Assembly: GCA_027488905.1 (NCBI GenBank)
Contig: JAIYAT010000020.1
Coordinates: 246,490 to 310,489 of the forward strand
Length of the DNA: 64,000 bases
DNA from: Bacteroidota bacterium
GTDB lineage: Bacteria; Bacteroidota; Bacteroidia; UKL13-3
Reading direction: 5' to 3'
The notes below the pieces were generated by a model. It had not been told where the DNA came from, searched no databases, and was given only the letters and a program-made list of their open reading frames with translations. Position numbers and translations under genes: made by a program. Shown piece after piece: positions 1 through 64,000 of the stretch; position 1 is the stretch's first letter, and the number at the start of each line of letters is the position of its first letter.

Positions 1-3000
1 GAAACACCTGAAGCTTGTATAAAATTATTATCGCTTCCGGTTGTACTAGATATCCATTGATAAGTGAACACTCCTGAGGCACCTGTTGGTGTTGAACCCA
101 AAAGGCCAGAAGGTGCATTTCCACTACAAATAGTTTGGTTTGAACCAATTGTATTATTAGCAATTGGAGAAACTATTGTCATTTTAATTGCAGCACTCGT
201 ATTCGATGGACAAACGCCTGCAGATACCGCTCTTCTGTACCAAGTATCCGTAATTAAGGCTCCAGGAATAAAATCTTTATCTGTACTAGTCCCTGATGCG
301 TTTGTAAAACCTGACGACGGACCGCTAGTGCTTATTTCCCATTGGAATAGATATGTTCCATTTCCTCCAGAAGGAGTTGTACCTGTTAAAGAGAATGGAA
401 TAGTTCCATTTATAACATCTTGACTTGAGCTTATACTGTTATTTGAAATAATTGAATTAACAGTAATTTCTATTGCGGCAGAAGTATCAAAACCTCCACT
501 TGAACTAACCACACGCTTAAACCATGTGGTAGTAGTTCTCACCCCAGGATTGTAGCTTGAACCAATGTTAACGCCACTTGCAAATACAAAACCTGAAGAT
601 GCAGAAGTTGTGCTACTCAACCATCTATAACTAAAGGCCCCATTTCCACCTGCTGGGATAGTTCCAGTTAATTGTGTTGCAGTGCTTCCTGTGCATATGG
701 TCTGATTTGAACTTATAATGTTATTAGTGATTATAGGATTAACTGTAATTTCAATGATACCACTAGTATCACTTGGACATACACCAGCTGAAACTATCCT
801 TCTAAAGTAAGTTGTATCATTCAATACTCCAGGATAATAAACTCTATTGGTATTTGTACCAGTGGCTGAACCAAAGATTGAAGTTGGCGTTCTGCTAATC
901 CAAGCAAAACTATAAGTTCCATTTCCTCCTAAAGGAATTGAACCATTAATCGAATCTGCACTAAAACCTGTGATAATTTGCTGCGCACCAGTAATAGTAT
1001 TATTACTAATTAATGGATTTACAGTTACCAAAACCGAAGAAGAAGTATCACGGCATTGACCTGAAGTTACCAATCTTCTAAGCCATGTATTTTGTGTTAA
1101 GGTAAATGGATAGTTATAATCTTGCAATGAAGTAGTTCCAAAACTCACACTAAACCCAGAGGTAGCACTTGTTGTACTTCTCAACCATTGGTAATTATAA
1201 CTTGAATTACCACCAGTAGGAACAGAACCTGTAAATGCTGCAGGTATTGTTCCTGTGCAAATGGTTTGATTGCCCGAAACTGTATTATCCGCTAAACCAG
1301 GATTCAAGGTAAAAGTCATGGTATCTGTTTGGGCTCCTGGAACACAGCTTGTGGTGATATTACAGAAGTATTGTCCTTCTTGACCAGCAGCAGAAGAGAT
1401 AATAGTAAGTGTATCATTATCTACTCCGGCATAACTAGCACCATTTGAAAGGTTAACAAAAGTTGAGCATGAGTTGCATTTAAATAACCATTGATAATTT
1501 AACCCAGGACCGCTTGCGTTAGTTATAATTCTACTATTTGAACCGGTACATCCTGTTTGGCTTGCTAAGGTTGTATTGGTAACACCTAGTGGTTGATTTC
1601 CAATTTGGAACGCCCCTAATGCCGTTTGGCCATTTAAAACAAAATTTGTATTTGTTGGAGTACCAAAAGGTGTAATATTGGTACTCCAAGTTGAATTGGT
1701 ATACCTATAAGCAACATAAGTGGCAGGAGTTACACCTGCATCATTATCTCCAGCTCCATAAGTAAAGTTGGCATTATAAGTTAATGGTAAAACTGTGTTT
1801 GAACCAAATTCAAAATACCTATTTACAGAGGCATTCGCATTTAAACAGGTTAAATCAATTTCCGGATGATCACCTGCAACAGACTTCCATTTTGCATAAC
1901 CCGCTGTAGATACAGTTGGATAGGTTAGAGTTATTGGCGCGTATTGAACGCCAGTACCTGTGAAGAAAGTTTGTGCTACATTAGCACCTGTTGCAAAATA
2001 ACGCTCTAAATAACCATCCACAAAACCATTGGTTCTGCTAATAGCCGACCCATTGAGCATGGTTATTTTTCCTGTAGTTGCAAACCTACCATTGGTTAAT
2101 ATTAAACTACCAGAAAAAGATAAACTATCTATAGTTGAAGTTATAACCGCACCTGAAACCGTATTATTAATAGTAATGTTTCTGGTGTTTGCGGATGGCA
2201 TTTGAAACACACCTGTGCTACCTACAATATTAACGGTATATTCTTCATACTCCCCAAAACTAACTGCCATAGTTGGGCCAGTGATTGTGCCTTCATTACA
2301 AAGCACCCTCATACGAGTATTTCCACTAATAGCAGTAATAGGCACGGTAAAGGTTCCAGATTGAGTATGATTTCCAGCAACAATTCCACCTAAATGTATT
2401 TGTTCACCAGCATCTGTAAATACCCCATTTTGATTATAATCAATCCAAATTGCCATGGCATTTTGCCAGCTTCCACCTGTTTGAATTGAAGAAACAGAAA
2501 AACCATGTAAAACCCCAGCATTAAGGTTATACGGACCGTAACCGGTAAAGTTTGAATAAGAACCTGTAACGCTGCCACTACCAGCGACTCCTATAGTACC
2601 TGACAAACTATTAACTGCTGTAGTATTATTTAAAATAGTGGTTGCCCCTTGTGTAATTGTAATATTCCCTACATCTTCATCTGAAGTTGGATTTGAAACT
2701 GAAGGAGGTAAACTATATGGAGATGGCCCTCTAGGTACTAAATTCCTAAATACACCAGTTCCACTGATAGTTTGAGAGCTTTGTGGCACAAATATACCAG
2801 CACTTCCAAGCAATAGCGGTGATAAACCCTCATTTGTTAAAATACCATTATTAACGATATTACCACCCACCTCAAAAGGTACTGCAACCGAATTAACATG
2901 CCTAAATTCTGATCCAGAATTAATGGTTAAATTTCCTTTAATGTATGTACCATAAATGGTGGAGTTACCAGCAGAAGTTGCTCCAAAACGGTTAAGGCCA

Positions 3001-9000: not shown

Positions 9001-12000
9001 ATACTTTCAGAAAAAGTACTAGTTTGACGCAACTCTGAATTTGCATTAACTGTTAAATTAATACATTCAAAACCTGAAGAAGAGCCTGTAGGAGTGGTAC
9101 AAAAACGAGCTCCATTGCTGGTATTCCCAATATTTTGACCGTTAATTATAAGGTTTCCCAACATCAACCTTCCAGAACTAATAAAAGTTCCAATATTAAA
9201 TCCAGGCGTTGCACCAGATTTATTTAAACCTGTAGTTCCTCCAATCACCAATGTATTTCCCGCCCAAACATTACTTGGTGATGAAGACCTATAGGCAAAA
9301 CTATATATAGATGTATTTGTATTTAAAAAATGTGGATCCACAATTGTAATGGTTCCCCCGTTTACAAGAACAGTTCCTGTGCTAAAGTTACCTAAAGTAG
9401 CATGACCAATAGAGAATAAATCTACAGTATTGAGCACACTGCCACTTGCTGTTCCATTGTTACCATCAATATTTATAAACCCGCCTCCCATTACAAATGA
9501 AGCTCCATTTAAAATGGCCATGTTTCCATTTACATTAATGGTTGCTGTGTTAGAAATATTTAATGAACCAGAAACTAAAAATGAGCGATTGCCTCCACCA
9601 TTTGGACCAATGTATAACGAATCTGAGCTAGCATTTAATACTCCTCCATTGTTTATAGTTAAGTTATTCGCAAAATAAGGTTGTACACCTCCAGAAAGCC
9701 CAATGGTATGTCCACTTTGGATAATAACATTTTGATTAGAATTTGGAACAAGCCCAGTAGACCATGTACTTGGATTTCCCCAATCTCCTGAAGCGATAGA
9801 GGTAACAGTAGTAACTTCTGAACCATAGTTGGCATTTTGAGCTGCCATGTAAAAGGATGACAAGAGAGCAGAAATTGTTGGCACCCTTAATCTATTAGCC
9901 ACTGGGTTAGCAGATGATGTTCCAGTTCCTACGCCAACAAATCCTACCAAAGTTCTACCATCTGGTCCAGATAAGGTAACATCTACTAAAGAATTAATTG
10001 TTTGCAAAGCATTTGAACCCTGAATTCTCAAACTAACGTTTTGGCCAGAAGCCAACACTGGTGTGTTTGAAGGGGAAGAAATACTCCAGTTACAATTGGT
10101 TCTGCGATGCAATACCATATGTCTCCAAATTCTATGTGTACCTATTCCAGTTCCGGTCCAAGTAAGTGCAGTTCCACCTCTTGTGGCAGAAATCTGAATA
10201 GTGTTACCCGCAACACTTACTACATAATAATTGGAATTTGAAGTTAAGCCCGTTGGCAAAGTACCACCACTTCTTAACCTTACAGTATCTCCTACTACCA
10301 ATGGATAATCTGCCATGCTAGAAACCACAATATTTGGAGACGTAATGGTAGTTACCTGAAATGATGTGGTATCCAATTGATTAGGTTCAATTGGTGTTTG
10401 GGTAAGATTAGAGGTTCCTGTTGTAGCATCATGTTGCACCCCAATTAACCCTCCTGTACTTAGTGCTGTGGCCGAACTAAAATACAACCAAACATGCCTA
10501 TTGGTAAGAGGGGCACCCATTGGAAAATGACCTACACTGCCATTGAAAGCAGAGGTTGGCAGCCCTGAAGTTGGAAACCACCTGTAAAACAACCCTGACG
10601 AATTAGTTATGATATTTCCTGCCGAATAGCTGTAAGAACCTGGTGTGGCAACAGCAGTTCCTAAGGTTAAATCATTTGCGCCAAGGGTAATATCACCACT
10701 TGTCATGGTAAGTGTATCTACAACTAATGATTTAGACAAGGTAACACCTAGAGGATTATTCACTAAAAACCTTCTTAAATTTAGGCTTGACCCAACTGGA
10801 ACTTCATTGCCAGTCCCCATTGAAATTGCATTTCTGCTTTGAATATATTGCAAATGCATGTTTCCAGCAGAAACGTTAAAGGTTGGTGTTGAATTAAACG
10901 TTCCTGCGTCAAAATTTGTTAACCCCGACCCAACAATTACAAAAGGATTGTGTCCTGGTAAAGACCTGCCAATTGTTAGCACATTACCAGAACCCATGCT
11001 TACATTTCCAAAACTTAATTGAACCTGCGTAAAAGTTAGATTTTTGTTTAAAGTTACCCCAGAAAGATTAGCTACTTGTAACCCAAAAATATTCTCTATA
11101 TCCCCTAAACCTCCAACTTGTTGTTGACCCGATAAGCCGTCTAAAATTAAGGTACCTAATAATGAGGTAGTATTTCCAGGCTCAGCGCCCATTAATTTTC
11201 CTCCTGCGGCAATGTTGATATTACCTCTCACAGATAAGTTAAAGCCTGTAGTTGCATTTCCAGTAAACAAGTATCCATTAGATTCTATAGTTAAATTGTT
11301 TTGAACCAAAGAAGCGCCAGTTAATCTTGCCATCCTAGAAGGAAAAGCATCCACCCTATTGTTTATTACTAAATTCCAAACTGGAAATCCTAGGTTCAAA
11401 CCGAAACCACAGTTATTGGCAAATGGCCCTCCAGTTTGAGTACTTATAGCATCTCCAATTTGAAGCGTACCTCCAGTAATTACCTTACTACCTCCTGCTG
11501 GCAAAGCAACTGTAGTTAAACCTGCCACAGGTATTGGATTGCGAATAAGGATTGTCCCTCCTGTCCATAAAACGGTTTGTAATGAACCTAAAGAAAATTG
11601 ATTAAATGAAGTGTTACTGGCAACCAATGGATTGGCATCATCAATATTAATCGTTCCACCAGTCATAGTAAACATAACACTTGTAGCATTAGAGTTACCC
11701 CAAAGTAAGCCGGCATAACAGTTTAAAGTTCCACCATTGATAACTAGCGCTGCACTTGAACCATTTGAAAAAATAATATCTGTATTTCCCCCAGAACCAT
11801 AGGTAAAAGTTCCTGCATCAATCCTAAGTTCACCAGAAATATTACTCTGGCCGCCATTAGAAGCAGTAAAAGGTGTATTTTGAGAAATTAACGCATTTGG
11901 GTGATTAATCCATAAGCGGCCTGCTGCTCCTACCATAGAAACTGATCCAGCATAAGGAAAAACGGTAATACCCACATTAACTTTTATAGTTCCAGCATTG

Positions 12001-14122: not shown

Positions 14123-15040
14123 TTAAGAATCCAACTCCCAAAGCATCACATTTTTATCATCACTAACTGATAAAAATTTATCTTTTGACATCCAGGCAAT
14201 TTTGTTGATAGAATTTACATGCGCTTGATGCCGCTGCTTGTCCATAACCCTTACCAATTCAAAGCTTTCAGCATCCCATATCTTAATGGTTTTATCCATG
14301 CTAGAAGTTAAAAATAGATTATAAACAGGATTAAATGCGATGGAATGTACATGCAAATTATGCGCTGCTACCGAATTTACTAAGGAAAAGCCATTCTTTA
14401 CATCCCAAAAATTTAACATTGCATCTCTTCCACCACTTAACAAAAAATCTCCTTTTAAATCGAAGGCTAAAGAAAAGACTGAATTGCTGTGCGCTGCAAT
14501 TTTGGGTTGAACCAAATGTAAATCTTCATCATATACATAAATATGAAAATCGCTTGAACCCAATGCCATCAAACCTTTGCTAGGATGAATAGCAATGCAC
14601 CTGATACTTTTATTGGATAAGGTTATTAACCTTTCAAATGCTAAACTTTGCGAGTCATACAAACTTATGCTTCCATCTCCCCCGGCCACAATCACACTAT
14701 TCCCCCACTTTTTGATATCAAAAACACCTCTGGTATGCGTAGTGAGTAGCTTCAATTCTGCTTTGTTTTGCAAATCTATCACATGCAAATTCCCTGATGC
14801 CGCGCCAATCCACAAATAATTGGATCCTTCATCATAAAACAAACTATAAACAGGCTCGGTTAATTTGGCAATCAAACGCCCCTGATTGGGTTCAGCTTCA
14901 CTCCAAGCAATCACCATTCCATCAGCAGCTCCTGAATAAATTAGGTTTTGCTTTGTATTTATTCCTAAAGCATAAATACTACCTGTGTGACCACTAAAAT
15001 TTATTAGCCTTCTGGCATTTATTCTATTCTTTGTTTGCAT
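14123..15040 (-). CDS. WD40-repeat protein
   Basis: 305 aa with recurring ...IAWS / KIWD / NFWD / MLWE dipeptide-terminated repeats typical of WD40 beta-propellers. Confidence 0.6.
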   Translation of the reverse strand: MQTKNRINARRLINFSGHTGSIYALGINTKQNLIYSGAADGMVIAWSEAEPNQGRLIAKLTEPVYSLFYDEGSNYLWIGAASGNLHVIDLQNKAELKLLTTHTRGVFDIKKWGNSVIVAGGDGSISLYDSQSLAFERLITLSNKSIRCIAIHPSKGLMALGSSDFHIYVYDEDLHLVQPKIAAHSNSVFSLAFDLKGDFLLSGGRDAMLNFWDVKNGFSLVNSVAAHNLHVHSIAFNPVYNLFLTSSMDKTIKIWDAESFELVRVMDKQRHQAHVNSINKIAWMSKDKFLSVSDDKNVMLWELDS

Positions 15041-15082: not shown

Positions 15083-15739
15083 ATGCCTTTAATTGACCAA
15101 ATATTAATTAGTGAAAATAACCTTATTGCAATTTGGCATATTACGGAGTCTACAGAAGATTTAAAACTTCAGCTAACAGAACAATATTCGGAAGCCGAAA
15201 AAGAAACGCGGATTAACGGAGCAAACGCAATGCATTGGCTTGCAAGCAGATGTTTAATTCAAGAGGTCTTTAGAGGAAATAAATTAAGGTTAGAAAAAGA
15301 CAATAACAACCATCCTACACTTTACGTAAACAATGTCAAATGGCATATTTCAATTACGCATGCTGCGGATAAAGCTGGAATTTATATTAGTAAAAACAAG
15401 CAAATTGGTATCGATTTAGAGCTTGTAGATGCTAGAATTCTTAGGGTCAGCCCAAAATTTATGAACGAAAAAGAACTTGAATTTGCTGGAAACCCTAATC
15501 AAGTTGCAGAGATGACCCTCATTTGGAGTGCCAAAGAATCTTTATATAAGCTGTATAATAAAAAAGAACTCGATTTTAAAAACCACTTAGTCATCGAGCC
15601 TTTTAATTCGGTTCAAACCGAAAAATTCTTTATAGGGAATATTCTAAAAGATTATATCCACAGAAAACAGAAAATACATTTTAAATTTTATGAGCAAGTT
15701 GTGCTCACTTATACTTCAGAAGACGATGCAGAAAATTGA
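15083..15739 (+). CDS. 4'-phosphopantetheinyl transferase (Sfp-type)
   Basis: Carries the PPTase signature motifs QIGIDLELVD (G-x-D-x-E) and WSAKESLYK (W/F-S-x-KE-S-x-x-K). Confidence 0.6.
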   Translation: MPLIDQILISENNLIAIWHITESTEDLKLQLTEQYSEAEKETRINGANAMHWLASRCLIQEVFRGNKLRLEKDNNNHPTLYVNNVKWHISITHAADKAGIYISKNKQIGIDLELVDARILRVSPKFMNEKELEFAGNPNQVAEMTLIWSAKESLYKLYNKKELDFKNHLVIEPFNSVQTEKFFIGNILKDYIHRKQKIHFKFYEQVVLTYTSEDDAEN

Positions 15740-16133: not shown

Positions 16134-16447
16134 TACCTAAGTTCGTCTAACAAACTTCTAAATTCATTTTTTGTCTTAGTGTCCTTGCTGTTTTTTAAAA
16201 TTTCTAATCCTTTTTCTAAAAAATTACAGGCTTTTTCGGTTTGACCCAAATTTGAGTAAACCATAGCTATCTGGTAAAGTGTAGCTACATGTTCAGTATT
16301 GATTTCCAACGTTTTATTGAACCAAATTAGGGCATTTTCGGTATTTGAATCTCCCAAATATTCCAAAGCAATGGCATAAGTTAGGAAAGTATCTACCTTA
16401 TTTTCCTCGAACATTTGTAAGAGTTTTGCTAATCGTTCTTGGTTCAT
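16130..16447 (-). CDS. Tetratricopeptide-repeat protein
   Basis: 105 aa with TPR-like A/L/Y helical repeats (ALEYLGDSNTENALIWFNKTLEIN..., YQIAMVYSNLGQTEKACNFLEKGLEI). Confidence 0.5.
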   Translation of the reverse strand: MNQERLAKLLQMFEENKVDTFLTYAIALEYLGDSNTENALIWFNKTLEINTEHVATLYQIAMVYSNLGQTEKACNFLEKGLEILKNSKDTKTKNEFRSLLDELRY

Positions 16448-20304: not shown

Positions 20305-20775
20305 TTAATTGAGTGTCGGAAATTCTGATTCACTAACATACTTATCATGCTCATTTAAAGAAAACAATAAATGAGACAAGCCATTGCTGATAAATAAATA
20401 TGGTACTTTAAAAACAGTGTTATACGTGCAAACCTGTATTAAAGTTTCAGTTGTTAAAGCCACTTCTGGCGCCTTACACTCGATTAACATGAATGGCTTT
20501 GATTGCTTGTCAAAAACTAAAACATCAAATCGCTTGCGTTTAGTATTGTAAACCAAACTTCTTTCTACCGCAATTAAACTTGCAGCAAAGTTTTTGGTTT
20601 GAACCAAAAAGGCTAACACATGCTGACGCACCCATTCCTCTGGCGTTAATACAACCCACTTTCTTCGAAATGCATCATAAATCTTTAAACTATCTTCTTT
20701 GCGTTCAATCCTAAATTCATAGCTGGGAAAGTTCAACTGCATGAAACAACTATTTAATAATGGCAAAATTGCCAC
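20305..20775 (-). CDS. Stand-alone type I restriction enzyme HsdR N-terminal-domain-like protein (PD-(D/E)xK fold)
   Basis: 156 aa; ...FDVLVFDKQSKPFMLIECKAP... resembles the HsdR_N-type nuclease core. No cognate M/S genes lie adjacent. Confidence 0.45.
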   Translation of the reverse strand: MAILPLLNSCFMQLNFPSYEFRIERKEDSLKIYDAFRRKWVVLTPEEWVRQHVLAFLVQTKNFAASLIAVERSLVYNTKRKRFDVLVFDKQSKPFMLIECKAPEVALTTETLIQVCTYNTVFKVPYLFISNGLSHLLFSLNEHDKYVSESEFPTLN

Positions 20776-25477: not shown

Positions 25478-25512
25478 TCTTTCGGGTTGAACCAAAAGGT
25501 TTTCAGTATAGA

Positions 25513-39649: not shown

Positions 39650-40687
39650 TTAATTTTTTTGGTAAGTCACGCGTTCATAGGAGAAGAACTTTGATACAAA
39701 TGCCACTCTTCTTCTCGGGTCATCTTCTTTGGCATAAGTCTCCATGCTTATGCCGGTGGTTTTATTAAGAATATCTAAGGCTAAATACCCTGCACCCCCT
39801 TTACTTATGGTATCAGCAGCAGCCAATGCTTGTGGAGGTATATTTCTCTTTACTTGCTGAACCAACCACTCACTTGGCTTTAAAAACTTTGGTGAAAGTA
39901 TAGGTTCAGCTACGATGGCATTCGCTAAGGTTGAAAGCGAAACCAATTCCAGTTCGGGCAAGGCTAACTTTACCGAACTTGCCTTTAAGCTTAATGGATT
40001 TATGCTATGCTGATTTAGTACTTCTGTTGAAACAATTAACTTCTCTATAGTTTGCGTGTTCGATTGCTGGCGCACCTTAGCGTCCTCGATGGTTTTCACT
40101 TGAGGATAGGTTTTCGGTTCACTAATCCTTGTAGGGCCTGTTTCTGAGTTAGTTGCTGCTAAAATAGGTTTTACCTCTTGCTGCTTTTTTAGCAGTACCC
40201 ATGAACCATATCCAAACAATAACAAGGTTGCTGCCAAGGTTATCCATTGCATAGGTAACAAGGCTATGCGCTTTCCATCTTTACGTTTGAGTTTGTCTTT
40301 CCCTTTAAATTCAATTTGCGAAGGCTGCAGTTTAGTAAGTTCAAACAAGGCATACGCCTTTTTAACAGCAGGTTGAATGGCAATTTCTCTTTCAACTTCT
40401 TTAACTTCTTGTGGCGTTAAATCACCTTCTATTAAGGCAATCAGTTGTGTTTCTTGGGCAGGCGTTAAGGTGTTAATTGCTTCCTTTTTCAGGTAAGAAA
40501 AATCCAGACTTGCATTACTTATTTCTAAAGCCAAATCGGCTTGAGATAATAAGTCAAATTCCGCCTTTATATGAGGATGCAAGGCAAGAAAATCCATTAA
40601 CAAAGCCGTTTCCGCTTCATTTAGCAAGCCTTCCAAATGGTTAATTAACCATTCCTCGTAGTTTGATAGGTTAGGTAAATTGCTCAT
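39650..40687 (-). CDS. Anti-sigma factor (single-pass membrane protein)
   Basis: 4-bp overlap with the upstream ECF sigma gene. One TM segment (WITLAATLLLFGYGSWVLL). Typical position and organisation. Confidence 0.55.
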   Translation of the reverse strand: MSNLPNLSNYEEWLINHLEGLLNEAETALLMDFLALHPHIKAEFDLLSQADLALEISNASLDFSYLKKEAINTLTPAQETQLIALIEGDLTPQEVKEVEREIAIQPAVKKAYALFELTKLQPSQIEFKGKDKLKRKDGKRIALLPMQWITLAATLLLFGYGSWVLLKKQQEVKPILAATNSETGPTRISEPKTYPQVKTIEDAKVRQQSNTQTIEKLIVSTEVLNQHSINPLSLKASSVKLALPELELVSLSTLANAIVAEPILSPKFLKPSEWLVQQVKRNIPPQALAAADTISKGGAGYLALDILNKTTGISMETYAKEDDPRRRVAFVSKFFSYERVTYQKN

Positions 40688-41169
40688 AAAACGTTTTCTA
40701 AACTCCCTAAATAATTCTTCATGGCCAACCTTGCGCGGTAGATATACACCTTTACCTGACTTTCATTTAAGCCGGTGATGTCCCCTATTTCTTCGTAGCT
40801 ATACCCTTCATAATCTCTCAACAACACAACATGTCTTTGTATATCACTTAAAGTCTCTAAGGCTTTATTTAATACCTTTTTCAAATCGGTGTATTTGTTT
40901 TCGGTTTGAACCAACTCCACATGATGGTCTTCCATCACAGCAGAATGTTTTTCCTTGCGAATTTTGTCAATCATGGTATGGTATCCTGCGGTAAACAAAT
41001 AGCTTTTCGACTTTTGAAAGTCTACCTGCTCTACCTTTAACCAAAGCTTTTCGAACGTATCTTGCACCACATCTCTAGCTGCATCATTATCCTTGAGGTT
41101 TTTCGCCACAAAGCGAAACAAACCATCAGCATATTGATCCACACAAGTATTATAATCGGCAACTGTCAT
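40684..41169 (-). CDS. RNA polymerase ECF-type sigma-70 factor
   Basis: Region 2 ...VVQDTFEKLWLK... and region 4 ...YEGYSYEEIGDITGLNESQVKVYIYRARLAMKNYL. 161 aa. Confidence 0.8.
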   Translation of the reverse strand: MTVADYNTCVDQYADGLFRFVAKNLKDNDAARDVVQDTFEKLWLKVEQVDFQKSKSYLFTAGYHTMIDKIRKEKHSAVMEDHHVELVQTENKYTDLKKVLNKALETLSDIQRHVVLLRDYEGYSYEEIGDITGLNESQVKVYIYRARLAMKNYLGSLENVL

Positions 41170-45271: not shown

Positions 45272-47683
45272 ATGATAGATAAAAAGTCCCTTTCTGAAAG
45301 AGATATATGCACCAAGTTTATTACCCCTGCGGTTGAGAAAGCGGGATGGAATAGACTGACGCAGTTATTGGAGGAAGTTTCGTTCACGGATGGAAAAATT
45401 TATGTGAGAGGTAAACTGACTGCAAGAGGAAATAAAAAACGAGCCGATTATATTCTGTATTACAAACCCAATATTCCTATTGCCATCATTGAGGCCAAAG
45501 ACAACAAGCATTCTGTTAGAGCGGGTATTCAACAGGCTTTGGATTATGCTCAAATACTTGATATCCCTTGTGTTTTTAGTAGCAATGGGGATGGCTTTTT
45601 GTTTCACGACCGTACCGCTACAGATGGTAATATTGAAACTGAAATTGGCTTAGATGATTTTCCAAGTCCCGAACAACTTTGGGAGAAATACAAAATTTAC
45701 AAAGGCATCGCAACGCCATCCGCTGAAAAGATTGCTTCACAAGATTATTATTTTGATGGTTCAAACCGAAAACCAAGATACTACCAACAAATTGCAGTAA
45801 ACAGAACTGTGGAAGCCATTGCCAACGGACAAAATCGTATTATTTTGGTAATGGCAACAGGTACTGGAAAAACTTATACTGCTTTTCAAATCATTCACAG
45901 ACTTTGGAAAAGTGGTGCAAAAAAACGCATTCTGTTTTTGGCCGACCGTAACGCATTAATTGACCAGACTCGCAGAGGCGACTTTAAACATTTTAAGGAT
46001 AAAATGACGGTGGTAAAGCACCGACAAATTGATAAGAGCTATGAAATCTATTTGGCATTATACCAAGGCTTATCTGGTACTGATGAGGATGCAAATGTGT
46101 ACAAACAATTTTCACCAGACTTCTTTGACTTGATTGTTATTGACGAGTGCCACCGAGGAAGTGCAAAGGAAGACAGCAGTTGGAGAGAAATTTTATCCTA
46201 TTTCAAAAACGCAACACATATTGGTTTAACTGCTACGCCAAAAGAAACCAAAGAAACAAGCAATACAGAATATTTTGGCGACCCAGTTTATACTTATTCC
46301 TTAAAACAAGGAATTGACGATGGTTTCCTTGCTCCCTATCGCGTAGTTAGAATTGGATTGAATATAGATGCTGAGGGTTGGCGTCCCGACCAAGGTAAAA
46401 CAGATAAAGATGGAAACGAAGTTGAAGATAGGGTTTATAACCGCAAGGACTTTGACCGAAATTTAGTAATAGAAGAACGCACAGAATTGGTTGCAAAAAA
46501 ACTCACTGAGTTCTTAAAAGGCTATGATCGTTTTGCAAAAACCATTGTGTTTTGTGTAGACATTGACCATGCTGAACGCATGCGAACGGCTTTGGCCAAA
46601 CATAATGCTGATTTGGTGGCAGAGAATTACAAGTATGTCATGCAAATTACAGGCGACAATGATGAAGGCAAACGAGAATTAGATAACTTCATCAACCCCG
46701 AAGAAAAATATCCTGTGATTGCCACTACCTCTGAATTAATGACAACAGGTGTGGATGCACAAACCTGTAAAGTAATTGTATTGGATGCCAATATCAATTC
46801 AATGACCAAGTTCAAACAAATCATTGGCAGAGGCACTCGCATCAATGAAGAATATGGTAAGCTTTATTTCACCATTCTTGATTTTAGAAACGCAACCGAT
46901 TTGTTTGCCGACAAAGATTTTGATGGTGACCCAATTCGTGTAAAGCCTGTTTCGCAAGACGAAGATTTATCATTGGTAGTAATTGAAGAAGAAGAAAATT
47001 CAGTAACCGTTTTAGACGAAGCCACAGGTGAGGAAGTGGTATTTGAAAAAGTTAAAATCCGCTATCCAGATGGCTCACCACTTGATGGAAATTGGGTAGC
47101 AAGAGATAAAAAGGGTTATAGAGAAAAAGTGTATGTAAACGGTGTGGATGTATCTGTTTTGGTGAGCCGTGAAATGTATTTCGACCAACACGGTAAACCC
47201 ATCACAAGCAGTTTAAAAGACCATACCAAAGATATTATCAAAGAAAAGTTTGCTTCGCTCGACGACTTTTTAAATAAGTGGAATTCCACCGACCGCAAAG
47301 AAGCCATCATTGCAGAATTGCAAGAACAAGGAGTAATGGTAGAACCCTTGTATGATGCCGTAAATAAAGAAGTGGATTTGTTTGATTTGATTTGTCATGT
47401 GGCTTTTGACCAACCCCCATTAACAAGGAGAGAAAGAGCCAACAACGTAAAGAAGCGAAACTACTTTACCAAATATGGCGAACAGGCCAAAAAAGTATTG
47501 GAAGCCTTATTAGATAAATATGCTGATGAAGGCATTACCAATATTGAAAATATAGAAGTGTTAAGAATTAATCCATTTGATTCTTTTGGATCACCTTTGG
47601 AAATCATCAACGAGTTCGGAAGTAAACAAAATTACTTTGCTGCCATCAAAGAACTGGAGACAGAACTATACAAACAGGCCTAA
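45272..47683 (+). CDS. hsdR: Type I restriction enzyme R subunit (short form, 803 aa)
   Basis: N-terminal PD-(D/E)xK nuclease region (ADYILYY...IAIIEAKD). SF2 helicase motifs (MATGTGKT Walker A; VIDECHR DEAH box; GLTATP motif III; later TTSELMTTGVD/QIIGRGTR motifs V/VI). Confidence 0.85.
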   Translation: MIDKKSLSERDICTKFITPAVEKAGWNRLTQLLEEVSFTDGKIYVRGKLTARGNKKRADYILYYKPNIPIAIIEAKDNKHSVRAGIQQALDYAQILDIPCVFSSNGDGFLFHDRTATDGNIETEIGLDDFPSPEQLWEKYKIYKGIATPSAEKIASQDYYFDGSNRKPRYYQQIAVNRTVEAIANGQNRIILVMATGTGKTYTAFQIIHRLWKSGAKKRILFLADRNALIDQTRRGDFKHFKDKMTVVKHRQIDKSYEIYLALYQGLSGTDEDANVYKQFSPDFFDLIVIDECHRGSAKEDSSWREILSYFKNATHIGLTATPKETKETSNTEYFGDPVYTYSLKQGIDDGFLAPYRVVRIGLNIDAEGWRPDQGKTDKDGNEVEDRVYNRKDFDRNLVIEERTELVAKKLTEFLKGYDRFAKTIVFCVDIDHAERMRTALAKHNADLVAENYKYVMQITGDNDEGKRELDNFINPEEKYPVIATTSELMTTGVDAQTCKVIVLDANINSMTKFKQIIGRGTRINEEYGKLYFTILDFRNATDLFADKDFDGDPIRVKPVSQDEDLSLVVIEEEENSVTVLDEATGEEVVFEKVKIRYPDGSPLDGNWVARDKKGYREKVYVNGVDVSVLVSREMYFDQHGKPITSSLKDHTKDIIKEKFASLDDFLNKWNSTDRKEAIIAELQEQGVMVEPLYDAVNKEVDLFDLICHVAFDQPPLTRRERANNVKKRNYFTKYGEQAKKVLEALLDKYADEGITNIENIEVLRINPFDSFGSPLEIINEFGSKQNYFAAIKELETELYKQA

Positions 47684-53279: not shown

Positions 53280-53395
53280 GATTCAATTTAAGTTAAATTA
53301 ATAGAATTTATATATTCTAAGGAAATACAAGAAACAATTTCATTGATAGTAGTTAATTTAGCGAAAAATATTAGAAATGGAAATAGATTTATAAA

Positions 53396-53740: not shown

Positions 53741-53751
53741 AACTTGATAAA

Positions 53752-56399: not shown

Positions 56400-56420
56400 T
56401 TTTAATTGAAAACCTTAAAT

Positions 56421-57257: not shown

Positions 57258-60200
57258 CTATTTCACCTCATACACCACAAACTTAATGCGCTCTTGGCTG
57301 CCTTCTTTTGTGGTAAGGGTTAGCATATAGTTACCTGCTTTTAGGTGGCCTAGCTCGAAGTTTTGGCTTTGGTTCAACCCGAAATACTTATTGCCTTCCC
57401 AAGCTAACCTACCCGCAATATCATAAACTGCCAATTTACAATCTCCAAGTTCATTTAGTGCCTTCACATAAAAGCTTCCGTCATTTGGGTTAGGATACAA
57501 TTGTAATCCTTGTTGCGCAAGGGCTTGGTTCAAGCCAACCGGATTAGGATTACAAATTGAATCGTCTACTACTTTTACCACCAAACTAAATGAATCGCGG
57601 CAACCCGCATCCGAAACACTGGTTAAGGTTACTTTGTAATTACCCACCTGATTATACTTTTTACCATAAATGGAAGTGTTCAAAACATCTGTGTTTCCAT
57701 CTCCAAAATCCCAAGTGGTGCCATTGATAAATCCTGAACCTATGAGGTAAGAAGCATTTACAAAATTATAGTTTTGAGTAAGCAAACATTCTACGGTATC
57801 TAAGGTTACAAAGCGCGAAACTGGTTTTGGTTTACCTGTATTATTTACTTGTAAAAACAAGGTATCAGAAATACTGCTGCAACCTTTTGCATCAATTGCG
57901 GCCAATACTACCGGGAAATTACCCGTAAAGGCATAGGCATGAAATACACTCGAATTTTTAACCAAAGGGGTTGAATACCCATCCCCAAAATCCCATAAAT
58001 ACTCAACGGCATTCGAACTTAAGGCATTAAATCTATATCCAGTATTACAAGGTGCACCCGTTTGTAAGGTAAAGGTAATGGCAGCACCCGGACCAGATTG
58101 GTCAATCACATTAATGTTTTTGCTAATCAACCTGCGACATCCATTGCTTAAGGCAACTTCTAACACAACTGGGAATACTCCGCCATTCTTATAAGTATGA
58201 CTAACATCGGTTGCAATGGAATCCTTACCATCTCCAAAAGTCCAAAAGTAGGAAGCGTTTAAGGTCGACTCGAAACTCAAGTTGGGTTCAAACTGAACTG
58301 TTTTAACACATGGCAATTGTGTGGCAACAAAATCTCCATTAACATCAGAGATGATAAAATTGGAAGAGAAGGTATCTGAACACAAGTTTTCAACTGCAAC
58401 TACTTTTAAGGTATGTTTTCCTTCACTTAAGCCATTTAAAACAAATGAGGTTCCTAACACTTGTGGGGCATTATTGTCTAAAATAAAATAAGTGTCTGTC
58501 ATGCCTGTACTTAAATTTACAAGCTGCCTGCTGTTTGAGCAAGTATCTGTAATGGCTAAACTAAAATCTGCTTTAGGACCATCAAAACCATACAAGGTAT
58601 CTAAAGAAGATAAAGAAGAACACAAGCCTTTTTTGGTTACCAATAACTGAACATACCCCGTATCTGTTTTGTCAAAGGCTACTCTTTGAACCCTCGTGCT
58701 GGAGTCTGTCCAATATTTTCTGTCTCCTAACCATAAGTAGGTGTAATCAGCGCCATTAACTAAAGGTGTGAGTGTAAATACATTTTGGCAATTGTTGGCT
58801 TGAACCAAGAAAGATGAATTGGGAGAATTAACAATTTCAATATTCTCTTGATACGTAAAAGTATCATTGATGGTAAGGCTAACTGCATAAACACCATCTG
58901 CTGCATACGTGTGTGAAGGAGAAGCTAAATTTGAAGTATCCCCATCTCCAAAGCGCCATTTGTAGGAAGTGGCTAGTATGGATGAATCTAAAAATTGAAC
59001 TGTTCTGTTGTTACAATTAAAACCCGTTACGTTAAAATTTGCTACCGGAATAGGCAATACTTCTATATTGGCAATGGCAGTATCCATGCAACCTGTAGAA
59101 CCTACCACGGCCAACATAACTTGGTATTTCCCAGGATTTGCAAACCTCCTATTAAAGACAAAAGAGTTTACCGAATCAATGGTACCATCCCCAAACAACC
59201 AACGATTAGAAACTACCCAACCAATGCCCAAAGAAGAACTGTTATTTAAGAAGTTAAAAGAATGGTCCACAAAATTTTGAATAGGGTCATTTGGCAAGAA
59301 AGAAGCAATTGGACCATAACTGCCAAATGGTAAGTTGATAGTTCTGGAAACCGTGCTGATACAACCATTTTTATTAGCAATTAAAATCACCGCTAAATCT
59401 CCTGTATCAGAAAATGTTTTAACAGGGCTCAAACGATTGTCGGATGTACCATCAGGGAAATTCCAAGTAAAGCGCATGGCGGTATCTGCGGCGCTTAAAT
59501 TGCTAAACTTAATTCTATTGCTGCAAGAATTTGGTGCAATGCCATAGGTAAAATCTATTGGCAATTGGGTTGAACCAAGTCCGGCAACAATAGGCTTCTT
59601 AATACTAACCGCACAACCACTTTCTGAGGTAGTGGTTAGAATTACGGTATCCACTCCAGGATTGATAAAATTAAACACTGGATTGGTAGCATTTGAACCT
59701 CCTTTTATGGGCGAACCAAACTGCCAAGCATAACTCATTCTAGCCAAAACATTGGTAGTGGAGAGGTTTTGAAAACTCACTAATTGATTGCAATTACTTG
59801 CTATAAATTCAAAATTTGGGGTAGGTATAGAAATATTAATAACATCTGCAACGGTATCTGCGCAATTGCCATTGTACACCGCCATTCTAATTAAATGGTA
59901 ACCAAAAGAAAGGTTATTAAGTGCAGCACTAGCACCTATTGAAACATAAGGCGCACCATCTAAACTATACGTATAAGATAACAAGCCAGGACTACTTAAG
60001 TTATTTATCACCCTGTTAGTAGAGCAATAGGTTTGCCCCACAGGAGGAACAACCTCAAAAGCTGCTGTGGCAGAAGGCACAAAAACAGCCGCATTAAAGG
60101 TTAAGGGAGTTGCATTGATTGGGCATCTTCCATTAGAGGCAACTTGAAGGGTAACGGTTTTTAATCCAGCACTACTATAACCCCTGCTGGGCACCCTGAG

Positions 60201-63200
60201 GAAAGTGTCACTTCCAAAACTGCCACTTGAAAATCCCCAATGGTAGTTGTATTGATTACTAATTGGCGCGCCAAAAAATGAATATACATTGTCACATGCC
60301 GCAACCGCAGATAGTGTTCCAACTACTGGCGTGGTAGCAACCGTAACCATTCTTTCACTGGAATCGGTTCCGTTAATGATTAACCTAACCCTGTAAATGC
60401 TATCCTTTGCATAAAGATGGGCTGGGCTGGCCAAGGTGGAAGAATCGCCATCGCCAAAATACCATTTGTAGGAAACCACCAAGGTGGAAGAATCTCTAAA
60501 TTGAACCAAGCGATTGCTGCAGGCGTTTTGAACAAAACCAAATTTTGAGGATACCACTGGGTAAACATTGATATTGGCTGTATAAGTATCTATGCAACCT
60601 AAGGTATTGGTTGCGCTTAAAGAGATTAAGTAATTGCCTGGAGAAGCGTACCTTTTGTCGTAGATAGAGCTGTTAGTTGAATCTAAAGTTCCATCTCCTA
60701 AATTCCATTTATACTTAATGTTCCAAGCATTATTCCCTAAGTGTGAACTGGTATTTACAAAAGAAAAATTGTGATTATTTATAGGCATGCTCACTTGGTT
60801 CAAACTAAACCTTGCGGCTGGACCAAAAGCGCCAGAATCTATTTGAATGATTTTAGTGGCAGTAGAACTACAACTACCATTGCTAACCGTTAGGTTAACT
60901 GTATAGGTTCCTAACTTAGCAAAACCATGTATTGGGTTTGCGAGGTTACTAGTAGTGGTATCGCCAAAATCCCAAGCATAAGAGAACCCAGTACCCGTGG
61001 TATTGGTAAATTGAATGATGCTTTTACAGGTTGTGCTTGCCAGACTAGTGTTAAAACTAGCATTTGGACCAGTACCCGTTCCCACCACAACTCTTCTTCC
61101 AATGGTGGCAGAACAACCACTAGTACTGGTTAAGGTTAAGAAGGCAGAATCTGCTCCCGAAACCCCAAAGTTAAAACTTGCATTTGGCGTATTGGCAGTT
61201 CCTTTGAGTGGTCTCCCAAAAAACCATTGGTAGCTTAACGCACCATTGTCTGTGCTAGAAGAGGTGGTTAAAAAATTAACTTGTTGGTTGCAAGAACTAG
61301 GAATTGCAATAAAGGATGGTATTGGAGCGCTAATGGTGAAAGGGAAATAAAGGGTATCAGAACAAAAGCTTTTGCTGCCCACCACCTGAATGAGGTGAGT
61401 GCCTGGTGTAAGTGCATTAACCGTGTCTAGGGCATTCAAAGTATCGAAAGGGCCATTGTCTATGCGCCACAAATAAAGGTTTGCGCCTACCCCATCGTTT
61501 CTAATGATTCGCGTTGTTGCACATAAGTTGTTATTTGGTGCATACACAACGGCTTTGGTAGAAAATCCATTTGGAGCGATGGTGGGTGTAAAAATAAGTT
61601 GCGAAGGAGAAATAGGACATTTGCCCTTATTGAAAACTGTTAGTGCTACACCCGTTGGGCCAGGCGTAGTATAGGAGCGTGTCGGAATTCTAAGGGTGGT
61701 ATCACTGCCTGTTCCGCCCGTAAATTGCCAATGATAGGTATAATTGTTTCCAGCAGGTGCGCCAAAGAAATTATATTCATAAGCACAATTTACTTGGTAA
61801 CTGATAGCAGCAACAGGCGCATGATTAATAATCTCGATGTTTTTACCCGCGGTAAGGTTTCCATTGATGGTGAGTTTAACCAAATAAATAGAATCTTTTA
61901 AATAGGTATGCACGGGGTTTCTTTGGGTTGAGGTATCGCCATCGCCAAACTCCCAAAGCCAAGAACCAGCAAAGTAAGAAGAATCTAAAAATTGAATGGT
62001 TCTGTTATTGCAACTAGGCGCTTGAAACCCAAACCTTGCATATACGTTTGGTTCAACCCGAACCCCTTTGTAAATAGTGTCTTTGCAACCCAAATTGTTG
62101 GTGGCAATTAAACGTACCCAATAATTTCCAGTATCAGGATACACTTTGTTATAGACAAAAGTATTGCTCGAAAAACTTCCATCGCCAAACTCCCATTGGT
62201 AATTGCTATTAAAGCCTGCACCGAGGTGTTTGCTGCTATTGGCAAAATCAAAAGATTGATTGGTGAAAAGTTGCGTATCTTGGTTAATACTAAAATTAGC
62301 AAACGGTCCTCTGGCTGCAGAATCTACCCTTATGGTTTGCAAGGAAGCGGTTGTACAAGTGCCATTGAAAGCGTATAAAATCACCAAGTAATTTCCAGTA
62401 TCTGCATAAGATTTAGCAGGATGGGTTGAAGTGCTAAAGGTGCTATCCCCAAAGTTCCATAAGTAAGAAGTAGCGCCATTGCTAGAAGTATTGGTAAATT
62501 GAATACGATTGTTACAAGGCTGATTGGCCTGCCAAACAAAGGATGGATTTGGTGTGGTGCCATTGCTTATGCTGATGGCTTTTCGGACGGTATTTGAACA
62601 GCCATTTGCGGCAGTTACAGTCAACGTAACCGTATCAATACCTCCGCTTCCAAAATTAAACAAAGGGTTAGGCAAAGTAGAAGTACCTTTTTGGGGTGAA
62701 CCAAAAGTCCAAAGGTAACTCAATGCTAAAGGCTCTTCGGCAAATGAGGTATTGGTAAATTGAACCGTGGCATTACACGTGCTCGCTTGCTCGTTAAAGG
62801 CAGCCGTGGTATTAGAAATCACAAAACTTGTTACCGCGGTATCAAAGCAAATTCCATTGTGTGCGGCTAAACGTAGGTGGTAAGTTCCTTTACTTAATCC
62901 ATTTAAATTGAAAGACGCAGTAATGGGTAAAAACGGACCGCCATTTACACTTAAAGTATAAGCAGATAGGCCGCTGCTGCTTGTATTGGTTATAATTCTA
63001 CTATTAGAACAAAAGTTATTTCCTGGTGCACTCACTGCAATTCCTGCTACCACAATTGGGGCATAAAGGTTCGGTTTGAACCTAAGCGCATTTGAAGCAA
63101 CTGAACAACGATTACCAGCCGTAAGGATAAGTTGTACTTGAGCTGTATCAGCAAGGAGATATTTTCGCGTGGCAAGTCTTGAGGAAGAATCAGAACCCGG

Positions 63201-64000
63201 CAATCCACCATTAAATATCCAACGATAAGAATAATAACTGCCAGAAGGAGCCCCATTAAAGGTATATTGAAAATTACAATCGGTGCTAGCGGTAAGACTT
63301 GGTGCAGTTGGGGTTGCAAAAACTGATATACTTCTAGTTGTTGCTATGGTTCCATTGATGGTTAAACTTACCAAGTACACAGAATCTTTAGAATAGGTTT
63401 TAGTAGGATTCTTTAAAGTAGAAGTAGTACCATCCCCAAAATTCCAGAGGTAAGTAGTTGCAATAAGAGAAGAATCATAGAATTGAACCGTACGGTTGCT
63501 ACAAGAATTGAGGTTGAACCCATACCTAGGCAAGGGCGTATTTACCACTAACATGGAATAACTTTGTTGCACCAAGCAAGTTGGCGAAGCCATTCCTTGA
63601 ACTGTAAAAAAGTAATTGCCTGTGGTATTGCTCGTTCCTGAAATTGCGCCAGTACTTGGATTTATAAGTAAACCCGTTGGCAGCGCACCCGAGGAAATGC
63701 TCCAAGAAAGCTGACTTAATTGTGGGGCATTTAAGTTAAAGTTATAAGGAATTCCGGCCACAGCATCATGCACGTAATTGGGTTGAATGCTTAAGCCATC
63801 ACAAGAAACCGAAGCTACTAATGGCACAATGACATCTGCAGCACCGGATGATTTTATGGTTGCTGTGCCATTGATGATACCGCCATTTGTATTTGAAAAA
63901 CATCTAACATAAATGGTTTGGTTTACGATACCACTTATCGGTGAGATGTTCAACGTATCGGTAAAACCAAAATCTCGGTTCAAGGATATTTGAAAACCAG
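57258..64000 (-). CDS. Giant PKD-repeat cell-surface protein with a T9SS C-terminal sorting domain (partial; N-terminus lies beyond the window end)
   Basis: At least ten PKD-type repeats with the W/Y-x-FGDG-x-x-S core (WNFGDGTTS, WEFGDGDTS, WDFGDGNTD, ...). The C-terminus LYPNPNDGSFYVKALNELGDCKLAVYDIAGRLAWEG...GNYMLTLTTKEGSQERIKFVVYEVK is a T9SS CTD. The ORF is open to position 64000. Confidence 0.8.
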   Translation of the reverse strand, partial: GFQISLNRDFGFTDTLNISPISGIVNQTIYVRCFSNTNGGIINGTATIKSSGAADVIVPLVASVSCDGLSIQPNYVHDAVAGIPYNFNLNAPQLSQLSWSISSGALPTGLLINPSTGAISGTSNTTGNYFFTVQGMASPTCLVQQSYSMLVVNTPLPRYGFNLNSCSNRTVQFYDSSLIATTYLWNFGDGTTSTLKNPTKTYSKDSVYLVSLTINGTIATTRSISVFATPTAPSLTASTDCNFQYTFNGAPSGSYYSYRWIFNGGLPGSDSSSRLATRKYLLADTAQVQLILTAGNRCSVASNALRFKPNLYAPIVVAGIAVSAPGNNFCSNSRIITNTSSSGLSAYTLSVNGGPFLPITASFNLNGLSKGTYHLRLAAHNGICFDTAVTSFVISNTTAAFNEQASTCNATVQFTNTSFAEEPLALSYLWTFGSPQKGTSTLPNPLFNFGSGGIDTVTLTVTAANGCSNTVRKAISISNGTTPNPSFVWQANQPCNNRIQFTNTSSNGATSYLWNFGDSTFSTSTHPAKSYADTGNYLVILYAFNGTCTTASLQTIRVDSAARGPFANFSINQDTQLFTNQSFDFANSSKHLGAGFNSNYQWEFGDGSFSSNTFVYNKVYPDTGNYWVRLIATNNLGCKDTIYKGVRVEPNVYARFGFQAPSCNNRTIQFLDSSYFAGSWLWEFGDGDTSTQRNPVHTYLKDSIYLVKLTINGNLTAGKNIEIINHAPVAAISYQVNCAYEYNFFGAPAGNNYTYHWQFTGGTGSDTTLRIPTRSYTTPGPTGVALTVFNKGKCPISPSQLIFTPTIAPNGFSTKAVVYAPNNNLCATTRIIRNDGVGANLYLWRIDNGPFDTLNALDTVNALTPGTHLIQVVGSKSFCSDTLYFPFTISAPIPSFIAIPSSCNQQVNFLTTSSSTDNGALSYQWFFGRPLKGTANTPNASFNFGVSGADSAFLTLTSTSGCSATIGRRVVVGTGTGPNASFNTSLASTTCKSIIQFTNTTGTGFSYAWDFGDTTTSNLANPIHGFAKLGTYTVNLTVSNGSCSSTATKIIQIDSGAFGPAARFSLNQVSMPINNHNFSFVNTSSHLGNNAWNIKYKWNLGDGTLDSTNSSIYDKRYASPGNYLISLSATNTLGCIDTYTANINVYPVVSSKFGFVQNACSNRLVQFRDSSTLVVSYKWYFGDGDSSTLASPAHLYAKDSIYRVRLIINGTDSSERMVTVATTPVVGTLSAVAACDNVYSFFGAPISNQYNYHWGFSSGSFGSDTFLRVPSRGYSSAGLKTVTLQVASNGRCPINATPLTFNAAVFVPSATAAFEVVPPVGQTYCSTNRVINNLSSPGLLSYTYSLDGAPYVSIGASAALNNLSFGYHLIRMAVYNGNCADTVADVINISIPTPNFEFIASNCNQLVSFQNLSTTNVLARMSYAWQFGSPIKGGSNATNPVFNFINPGVDTVILTTTSESGCAVSIKKPIVAGLGSTQLPIDFTYGIAPNSCSNRIKFSNLSAADTAMRFTWNFPDGTSDNRLSPVKTFSDTGDLAVILIANKNGCISTVSRTINLPFGSYGPIASFLPNDPIQNFVDHSFNFLNNSSSLGIGWVVSNRWLFGDGTIDSVNSFVFNRRFANPGKYQVMLAVVGSTGCMDTAIANIEVLPIPVANFNVTGFNCNNRTVQFLDSSILATSYKWRFGDGDTSNLASPSHTYAADGVYAVSLTINDTFTYQENIEIVNSPNSSFLVQANNCQNVFTLTPLVNGADYTYLWLGDRKYWTDSSTRVQRVAFDKTDTGYVQLLVTKKGLCSSLSSLDTLYGFDGPKADFSLAITDTCSNSRQLVNLSTGMTDTYFILDNNAPQVLGTSFVLNGLSEGKHTLKVVAVENLCSDTFSSNFIISDVNGDFVATQLPCVKTVQFEPNLSFESTLNASYFWTFGDGKDSIATDVSHTYKNGGVFPVVLEVALSNGCRRLISKNINVIDQSGPGAAITFTLQTGAPCNTGYRFNALSSNAVEYLWDFGDGYSTPLVKNSSVFHAYAFTGNFPVVLAAIDAKGCSSISDTLFLQVNNTGKPKPVSRFVTLDTVECLLTQNYNFVNASYLIGSGFINGTTWDFGDGNTDVLNTSIYGKKYNQVGNYKVTLTSVSDAGCRDSFSLVVKVVDDSICNPNPVGLNQALAQQGLQLYPNPNDGSFYVKALNELGDCKLAVYDIAGRLAWEGNKYFGLNQSQNFELGHLKAGNYMLTLTTKEGSQERIKFVVYEVK

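Follow-up and report, generated by a model that had tools for sequence, protein, structure and literature searches.

Why does one short DNA word return every few kilobases, on both strands and in coding as well as intergenic sequence, in a 64,000-nt stretch of a Bacteroidota genome (Bacteroidota bacterium, GenBank assembly GCA_027488905.1, contig JAIYAT010000020.1, positions 246,490 to 310,489 of the forward strand; the whole stretch is hereafter called the window)? An original prediction, made from the letters of this DNA, had singled out the 14-mer GGTTCAAACCGAAA as strongly over-represented, and the excess proved to be real: five exact copies are present as compared to 0.01 expected from dinucleotide-preserving shuffles of the window, and 21 sites with at most two mismatches face an expectation of 0.66 and a shuffle maximum of 4. 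Twelve sites, or one per 5.3 kb, have at most one mismatch, and 13 occurrences of the 10-mer core GGTTCAAACC were counted. Under an order-3 Markov model of the window, GGTTCAAAC was observed 20 times (1.3 expected) and GGTTCAAACCG eight times (0.04 expected), both being outranked only by words from a local tandem repeat of 22 bp. In the following, we weigh what may maintain such a word; the reading that we favour, and that we judge to fall just short of probable, is that it serves as a DNA-uptake-enhancing sequence, or as a similar tag of self DNA, kept by a sequence-biased drive.

The 14-mer had been taken as the unit of the signal, but while it is indeed enriched, the word itself is longer. 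When 65 copies, drawn from the window as well as from related loci, were aligned on the 10-mer core, T occupied position -2 in 95 % and position -3 in 62 % of them, and downstream of the core a G at +1 (74 %) was followed by A at +2 (80 %), +3 (77 %), and +4 (71 %); outside of these ~17 nt, the flanks carry zero information. The full unit is TTnGGTTCAAACCGAAA, which can be written T-T-n-GGTTCAAACC-G-A-A-A, holds ~25 bits, and tolerates A8 to C (the CAACCC variant), G11 to A, and changes among the last A's. Likewise, the description of the core as an inverted repeat applies only loosely, given that the extended word TTTTGGT-TCAA-ACCGAAA is an imperfect, asymmetric palindrome whose reverse complement differs, with a weak hairpin on the motif-sense strand (-4.9 kcal/mol) and essentially none on the complement (-1.7 kcal/mol).

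A role as terminator hairpin finds no support, on account of this weak, one-stranded folding and of flank frequencies that, as far as frequencies tell, do not resemble those of a selected stem. The copy at 42516, which had been placed within a terminator, is a three-mismatch relative of the word, and the actual terminator at 25510-25538 adjoins the motif copy at 25480 and does not contain it. An origin from tRNA T-arms or other structured RNA found no support either, the window being devoid of tRNA genes and of Rfam matches.

The genomic context of the word was assessed in 218.6 kb from the motif-bearing clade, which hold 54 sites with at most one mismatch, 26 on the plus and 28 on the minus strand. 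Some 70 % of these (38 of 54) lie in open reading frames (ORFs), 21 in sense and 17 in antisense orientation. The other 16 (30 %) are intergenic, as compared to 11 % of the sequence being non-coding, which amounts to an approximately threefold enrichment (p = 2e-4), and several intergenic copies sit 0-32 bp past a stop codon. Within genes, the codon phase G-GTT-CAA-ACC-GAA-A predominates (30 of the 38 coding copies; read as VQTE in sense and as FGLN in antisense orientation), and the phase that contains TGA is used by none of the 38. The dominant phase holds the CpG between codons and outside of CGA, CGG, and CCG, codons that are assumed to be rare here. The proposal that the signal acts at the DNA level is borne out by its presence on both strands, in sense and antisense orientation, between genes, and in more than one frame, with flanks that lack conservation; both orientations, several frames, and the intergenic copies also rule out a protein-motif origin of the true copies.

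It is scarcely credible, accordingly to the same set of data, that the word is the remnant of a mobile or dispersed repeat (a miniature inverted-repeat transposable element, MITE; a repetitive extragenic palindrome, REP; or the end of an insertion sequence, IS) or arose secondarily from a protein motif that recurs. Protein constraint does account for some weak look-alikes, such as those over the peptide LDLNQ at 21607 and over GGTTCAAACCATGAACC in ispG at 33596, and one pair of copies at a related locus, L049, lies within a local 108-bp duplication. On the other side stand the absence of information outside the 17 nt, orthologues that differ by point substitutions, the intragenic position of 70 % of the copies on both strands and in several frames, and the finding that none of 120 viral loci among the matches listed holds more than one copy. 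Since the flanks carry no information, the true copies do not form a MITE or dispersed repeat family, an origin that the original prediction had named among those that would undo its case and that the logo of the flanks, together with the alignments of orthologues, effectively refutes. As for the look-alikes themselves, the one at 21607 is probably protein-driven and no true member, because LDLNQ is shared by all relatives, motif-free lineages included, and the ispG word TTGGTTCAAACCATGAACCAA, which resembles the motif owing to protein constraint, makes the 10-mer core seem more frequent than it is. At L049, the two direct copies (within 380-560 of that locus, 108 bp apart) each follow a palindrome, AATTCAGAATTC(T/A)GAATT.

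Orientation provides a further handle, since an alternative raised from the outset was a polar motif of the Chi, KOPS (FtsK-orienting polar sequence), or AIMS (architecture-imparting sequence) type that guides RecBCD/AddAB or FtsK along replichores. Like these, the word is apparently a core-genome feature and occurs about once per 5 kb, as does Chi in E. coli. Neighbouring sites were compared within 8-kb loci and the window, where replication direction is constant, and were found to be oriented independently of each other: 11 of 30 adjacent pairs with at most one mismatch share orientation (19 opposite), and so do 21 of 54 (33 opposite) when two-mismatch sites are included, neither of which differs from 50 %. 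Skews of 75-90 % are rejected with p = 0.004 to 5e-8 for the former and 4e-4 to 2e-12 for the latter set, and the shorter core TTGGTTCA is symmetric between strands in every locus. Known polar motifs, in contrast, measure 5-8 nt and show a strong alignment with the direction of replication. Because adjacent orientations are incompatible with a skew of 75-90 %, KOPS- or Chi-like polarity is effectively refuted, and we regard a guiding function of this kind as very improbable.

How far does the word extend beyond the window? By exact look-up of RecA, the same locus was found in the metagenome-assembled genome (MAG) GCA_027487655.1 at 98 % DNA identity, and it is also present in freshwater metagenome assemblies at 100, 94, 88, and 85 % identity. 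Among the many metagenomes in which the species occurs are SRR16126829/39, SRR30952595, and SRR31285097. A scan for the 14-mer in 185,579 species genomes, for which an estimated ~4,400 chance matches are expected collection-wide, returned 116 stretches among the matches listed, 27 of them from nine freshwater Bacteroidota MAGs with several contigs each (JAIYCU, CANKQY, JAIOYZ, CAILJQ, JAWXAZ, CAYUDC, JAUYMZ, JBILJL, and JBIKKC). Again among the matches listed, most 8-kb stretches of these nine MAGs hold extra near-exact copies, whereas the other genomes are represented by single matches, nearly every stretch having just the copy that triggered it. The word is enriched in at least nine MAG species besides that of the window. 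An association with phages was rejected: the 120 viral loci among the IMG/VR matches listed (1.08 Mb) have one exact copy each and in no case a second one with at most one mismatch.

Relatives that were sampled through RecA, and that were in this way not selected for the motif, allow for delimiting its range. Within 21 kb, five sites are present in the locus L130 from the JAIYCU species (RecA 97 %, DNA 79.5 % identical). In three sister lineages with conserved synteny (RecA 94-95 %, DNA ~70 % identical) the number is zero or one, and no sites were seen in the RecA-sampled loci of three more distant relatives; enrichment of the 14-mer is therefore roughly genus-level. The sister lineages are enriched for an overlapping word, TGGTTCAG, with 20 occurrences against 3.0 from a Markov model and ~5.6 times the density of control sequence, a modest signal that is drawn from 63 kb and includes some shared orthologous sites. 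This second word (also given as TTGGTTCAG) tentatively resembles a dialect of an uptake sequence. In the literature that was searched, the 14-mer appears in no paper, and uptake sequences are not reported for Bacteroidota.

The fate of individual sites is most telling when orthologous positions are compared. Six sites (16234, 20592, 25480, 27975, 30590, and 32676) are found at orthologous positions in all strains (identities of 94, 88, and 85 %) as well as in the species at 79.5 % identity, from which the window species differs at 54 % of four-fold degenerate sites and with which it shares an intergenic identity of 62 %. Against this background of 38 % intergenic divergence, only 5 of 42 positions differ in the three intergenic copies (p = 1.6e-4), and for copies with at most one mismatch 4 of 70 positions differ as compared to 20.5 % overall (p = 5e-4). 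All differences at orthologous sites are point substitutions, and insertions are absent. With the motif-free sister lineages as outgroups, some substitutions could be polarised: the copy in a dehydrogenase gene (32676) arose by synonymous changes together with L/M to F and V to T, and the copy in a protein sorted by the type IX secretion system (T9SS; 36198) arose by M to L and E to T, the latter of which needs three nucleotide changes. As these copies came about partly through amino-acid replacements, a DNA-level force has moved both sequences closer to the word, and the proteins have borne some of the cost. The alignments also show that homologous DNA is exchanged between lineages. In comparison with the window, the 85-88 %-identical background of L005 is interrupted at ~21200-22200, inside a conserved gene for a 700-aa protein, by a tract of 97-98 % identity, where L008 has 84 %; such a tract in such a background indicates recent homologous recombination between diverged lineages.

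What remains, on the basis of these comparisons, is a word that is orientation-neutral and lineage-specific, apparently belongs to the core genome, and is actively maintained. Because hundreds of dispensable sites would be conserved, some of them created via amino-acid changes, we infer that a drive is likelier than selection at each site, and this drive could consist of biased uptake plus recombination or of biased repair. If it is uptake, TTnGGTTCAAACCGAAA would be the lineage-specific 'self' signature of uncultured freshwater Bacteroidota, with about one copy per 5 kb, maintained by sequence-biased drive and not by a function of each site. Fragments with the word would preferentially be taken up in natural transformation, presumably after a surface or periplasmic DNA receptor has bound the double-stranded word; tagged conspecific fragments would then be imported through ComEC and recombined by RecA, so that word-bearing alleles would replace alleles without it. 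The mode of action would resemble that of the DNA uptake sequences (DUS) of Neisseriaceae and the uptake signal sequences (USS) of Pasteurellaceae, though the sequence is unrelated and the receptor presumably not the same. The data show the excess of the word, its DNA-level nature, its neutrality in orientation, its bias toward one codon phase, its enrichment between genes, its conservation in position across species, the substitutions toward it, and its confinement to a lineage; the identity of its reader as an uptake receptor and the natural transformability of its hosts are inferred.

As with DUS (e. g., ATGCCGTCTGAA) and USS (AAGTGCGGT core with AT-rich flanks), we find a lineage-specific and hugely over-represented word that occurs on both strands without replichore skew, is genic yet enriched between genes, shows biased reading frames with avoidance of the one that contains a stop codon, and is conserved in position between related species. 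The related, different word in sister lineages tentatively recalls a dialect, the low count in a recently acquired island may point in the same direction, and viral contigs among the matches listed carry single copies. All sequence-level features that were tested fit or are compatible with the uptake-like alternative of the original prediction, with the exception of inverted pairs in terminators; the reading remains an analogy. The differences are a word of unrelated sequence in the phylum Bacteroidota instead of Proteobacteria, and that no type IV pilus or ComP-type receptor is known from those transformable Bacteroidota that have been investigated to date. As to competence machinery such as ComEC, DprA, ComF, a DNA receptor, or a pilus, recA and a small ssb are all that was seen in the window. 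For the classical systems, the known or predicted receptors are ComP and, by prediction, ComN. Natural transformation in Bacteroidota has been described for Riemerella, where it is pilus-independent and involves outer-membrane and surface proteins by a mechanism that is poorly understood, and for this very reason a sequence-selective receptor in this phylum is conceivable.

Several observations weigh against an uptake function. The word is 4-10 times less dense than the uptake sequences of N. meningitidis or H. influenzae, with ~1 exact copy per 13 kb and ~1 per 5 kb when one mismatch is allowed, and at ~17 nt and ~25 bits it is longer than DUS or USS cores. Closely spaced inverted pairs that form a terminator are missing from ~240 kb, the nearest opposite pair being 376 bp apart, and each of the four site pairs less than 210 bp apart is direct. 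All six compared sites are common to both species and none is lineage-specific, so that the comparison gives no sign of ongoing gain. In the defense island of the window, one site is present as compared to 3.7 expected, a non-significant depletion (p = 0.12). Finally, ~270 exact or ~650 near-exact copies per genome are extrapolated for an assumed size of ~3.5 Mb, and the genome-wide distribution is extrapolated from ~300 kb of sampled loci, most of which were picked for holding a copy. Approximately half of the established DNA-uptake-enhancing sequences are inverted-repeat pairs forming terminators, and because this defining feature is absent here, we file the word as one that may work like an uptake sequence and not as a demonstrated member of the class.

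The same features may also be read in terms of a protein that stays on the chromosome, namely as binding sites of an abundant sequence-specific protein with each site under ordinary selection. Conceivable candidates would be factors of nucleoid occlusion, of condensin loading, or of the ParB/Noc type, nucleoid-associated proteins, and defense systems with recognition of self DNA. A long (17 nt), information-rich, and partly palindromic word suits a protein operator, and the strict positional conservation between species, with no turnover in six sites, the neutral orientation, and the fairly regular spacing in the window (5 of 11 gaps measure 4.2-4.9 kb) are in line with this proposal. The sites of Noc (NBS), SlmA (SBS), MatP (matS), and ParB (parS) are likewise specific words of 14-18 nt that are read as double-stranded DNA, often genic, and conserved in position. 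However, these systems comprise tens of sites per genome, which are true palindromes with a regional distribution, whereas several hundred sites are extrapolated here for a word that is no true palindrome and whose copies are spread over many contigs. Moreover, selection on any single one of so many redundant sites would presumably be too weak to bring about E to T and V to T changes in conserved proteins. We therefore regard a chromosomal reader as unlikely, albeit as the main rival of the favoured reading.

A second type of drive would do without any reader beyond a repair enzyme: near-matches could be turned into the word by a bias in sequence-specific repair or gene conversion, exerted by a methyltransferase-linked system or by a mismatch endonuclease of the very-short-patch kind. 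Such a bias would account for changes that run toward the word even at a cost, for its restriction to a lineage, and for the shorter related word in sister lineages. Known repair biases act on contexts of 4-6 nt and cause modest enrichments, and to our knowledge, a 17-nt asymmetric target would be unprecedented. In addition, no gene for a Vsr-like enzyme or an orphan methyltransferase was found linked to the word. A precedent may be seen in HIP1 of cyanobacteria (GCGATCGC), a hyperabundant DNA-level word in coding and non-coding sequence that is conserved in position and has no known function despite evidence of selection (PMC5861425). HIP1, however, is a perfect palindrome of 8 nt with one copy per 0.3-1 kb; the word lacks such symmetry, extends over 17 nt, and is approximately tenfold less frequent. 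All in all, we consider repair bias to be improbable.

Returning to DNA uptake as the favoured reading, a 2025 survey still limits such sequences to Neisseriaceae and Pasteurellaceae. We deem it possible, with somewhat less assurance than for the uptake-like tag as such, that the word represents the first DNA-uptake sequence outside of the Proteobacteria, a 17-nt tag read by a pilus-independent, SusC/D-like import machinery. If true, the phenomenon would extend from two proteobacterial families to a new phylum, that is, to uncultured Bacteroidota of lakes and ponds; these abundant freshwater bacteria would practise species-selective natural transformation; and uptake sequences would have evolved independently at least three times. 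The receptor would be of a new kind, given that transformation in Riemerella is pilus-independent, and the 17-mer (TTTGGTTCAAACCGAAA) offers a concrete bait for its isolation by pull-down or DNA affinity purification sequencing (DAP-seq). The word may also serve as a simple marker by which recent acquisitions in these MAGs can be distinguished from native DNA. Even if a chromosomal protein proved to be its reader, or biased repair its cause, an unexplained genome-shaping force would remain behind a 17-nt word that is kept at hundreds of sites, and strongly enough to alter proteins.

The sites of the window are compiled in Table 1. Most of the positions in the original prediction lay within ~15 bp of the true ones and required minor correction (15606 to 15610, 38695 to 38681, 45772 to 45758, 62045 to 62050, and 63060 to 63069, with 38681 being a GTAA variant), while 58245 was ~40 bp off (58285). 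At 25480, 57371, and 62050, the CAACCC variants proved to be real, and the peptides GSNRK in hsdR and SVQTEK in the phosphopantetheinyl transferase had been read correctly.

Table 1. Sites of the 14-mer and look-alikes in the window. Labels beginning with L denote related loci; L130 is from the JAIYCU species and L132 from a sister lineage.
Position	Strand	Match to 14-mer	Context	Remarks
133..146	-	2 mismatches	sense in giant ORF	
11393..11406	+	exact	antisense in giant minus-strand ORF (1-13787), codon phase FGLN	
14500..14513	-	2 mismatches	sense in WD40 gene (LVQPKI)	
15610..15623	+	exact	sense in 4'-phosphopantetheinyl transferase gene (SVQTEK)	
16234..16247	-	1 mismatch (GGGTCAAACCGAAA)	sense in small TPR gene	identical at orthologous position of L130 (79% DNA identity)
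20592..20605	-	1 mismatch (..CCAAAA)	sense in stand-alone HSDR_N_2 gene (LVQTKN)	kept in L001, L005, L008, and L130; with 1 mismatch in sister lineage L132
21607..21620	+	2 mismatches, look-alike	over peptide LDLNQ	peptide conserved in all relatives including motif-free lineages
25480..25493	-	1 mismatch (CAACCC variant)	intergenic, 2 bp past stop of T9SS Ig-like protein gene	upstream of this gene's strong terminator hairpin; kept in all strains and L130
27975..27988	+	exact	intergenic, 1 bp past stop of DUF5777 gene	identical in L130
30590..30603	+	2 mismatches	intergenic, 4 bp past stop of ABC ATPase gene	1 mismatch in L002, L005, and L130
32676..32689	-	1 mismatch	antisense in short-chain dehydrogenase gene (FGLNQT)	derived as compared to sister lineages
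33594-33612		look-alike, TTGGTTCAAACCATGAACCAA / GGTTCAAACCATGAACC at 33596	ispG	also at L132 17318 and L126 17675; kept in motif-free lineages
34277..34290	-	2 mismatches, look-alike	ispG	weak, probably chance
36198..36211	+	2 mismatches	sense in T9SS-sorted protein (LGQTV)	derived as compared to sister lineages
38681..38694	+	1 mismatch (GTAA variant)	antisense in DUF2807 gene	
39929..39942	+	2 mismatches, look-alike (GGTTGAAAGCGAAA)		weak, probably chance
40899..40912	-	exact	sense in extracytoplasmic function (ECF) sigma factor gene (LVQTEN)	
45758..45771	+	exact	sense in type I hsdR (GSNRK, minority codon phase)	sole copy in 11-kb low-GC defense island
57371..57384	+	1 mismatch (CAACCC variant)	antisense in 2246-aa ORF	
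58285..58298	+	2 mismatches	antisense in 2246-aa ORF	
62050..62063	+	2 mismatches (CAACCC...C)	antisense in 2246-aa ORF	
63069..63082	-	1 mismatch (final C)	sense in 2246-aa ORF	

With a G+C content of 37 %, the window encodes T9SS-sorted proteins, RecA (its gene preceded by a small ssb), an electron transfer flavoprotein (ETF), IspG, and an island of type I restriction-modification, Abi, and Drt2 genes, a gene content that places it in Bacteroidota. This low-GC (0.30-0.36) defense island spans 45272-56400 and comprises hsdR, hsdM, and hsdS, an Abi_2 gene between hsdR and hsdM, several ORFs without a family match, and a gene for a Drt2-type antiviral reverse transcriptase (53752-55275), which scores 339 bits and thus lies under the NCBIfam curated cut-off of 390. 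The 8-mer core is found twice in the island as compared to six expected (p = 0.06), and depletion of the word there is suggestive only. At the right edge of the island (56422-56662), a 131-bp unit is repeated 1.8 times with 89 % matches, which may represent the island boundary or an attachment-site duplication.

About one third of the window is taken up by two giant ORFs on the minus strand, one of more than 4595 aa that runs off the window (1-13787) and one of 2246 aa (57258-63998), both of which probably encode surface or adhesin proteins. The 22-bp tandem repeat mentioned above (AAGCTACTACCCAAATGGTGGG, 14.4 copies, 41346-41661) adjoins a 44-bp unit that is present twice (41248-41336), and together they fill a gap of ~800 bp between the ECF sigma factor gene and a gene for an M15 peptidase; short-read assemblies of the same strain end at the 22-bp repeat, 212 bp upstream of the sigma factor gene.

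The single-stranded DNA-binding protein (SSB) encoded at 25644-25994, upstream of recA (26208-27239), is short (116 aa). The pairing of ssb and recA is found in close and sister relatives as well as in the distant L127 and L128, and not in L129. In L005 and L006, ~530 bp with small ORFs are inserted just upstream of ssb, beside the motif copy at 25480, and on another contig of the species this place is held by a gene for a PIN-domain protein.

On the minus strand, at 20305-22852, a stand-alone HSDR_N_2 gene (PD-(D/E)xK-like, 145 aa) is tightly coupled to the gene for the 700-aa protein, which has no family match save a faint C-terminal one to PorZ. The two genes are syntenic in close and sister relatives, and in L126 only the one for the 700-aa protein was seen. 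L126, a sister without the 14-mer, has intergenic arrays of 7-bp tandem units (CGTAAAT, CGTAATT, and CATCGTA) at 1213-1290, 8982-9060, and 16752-16990.

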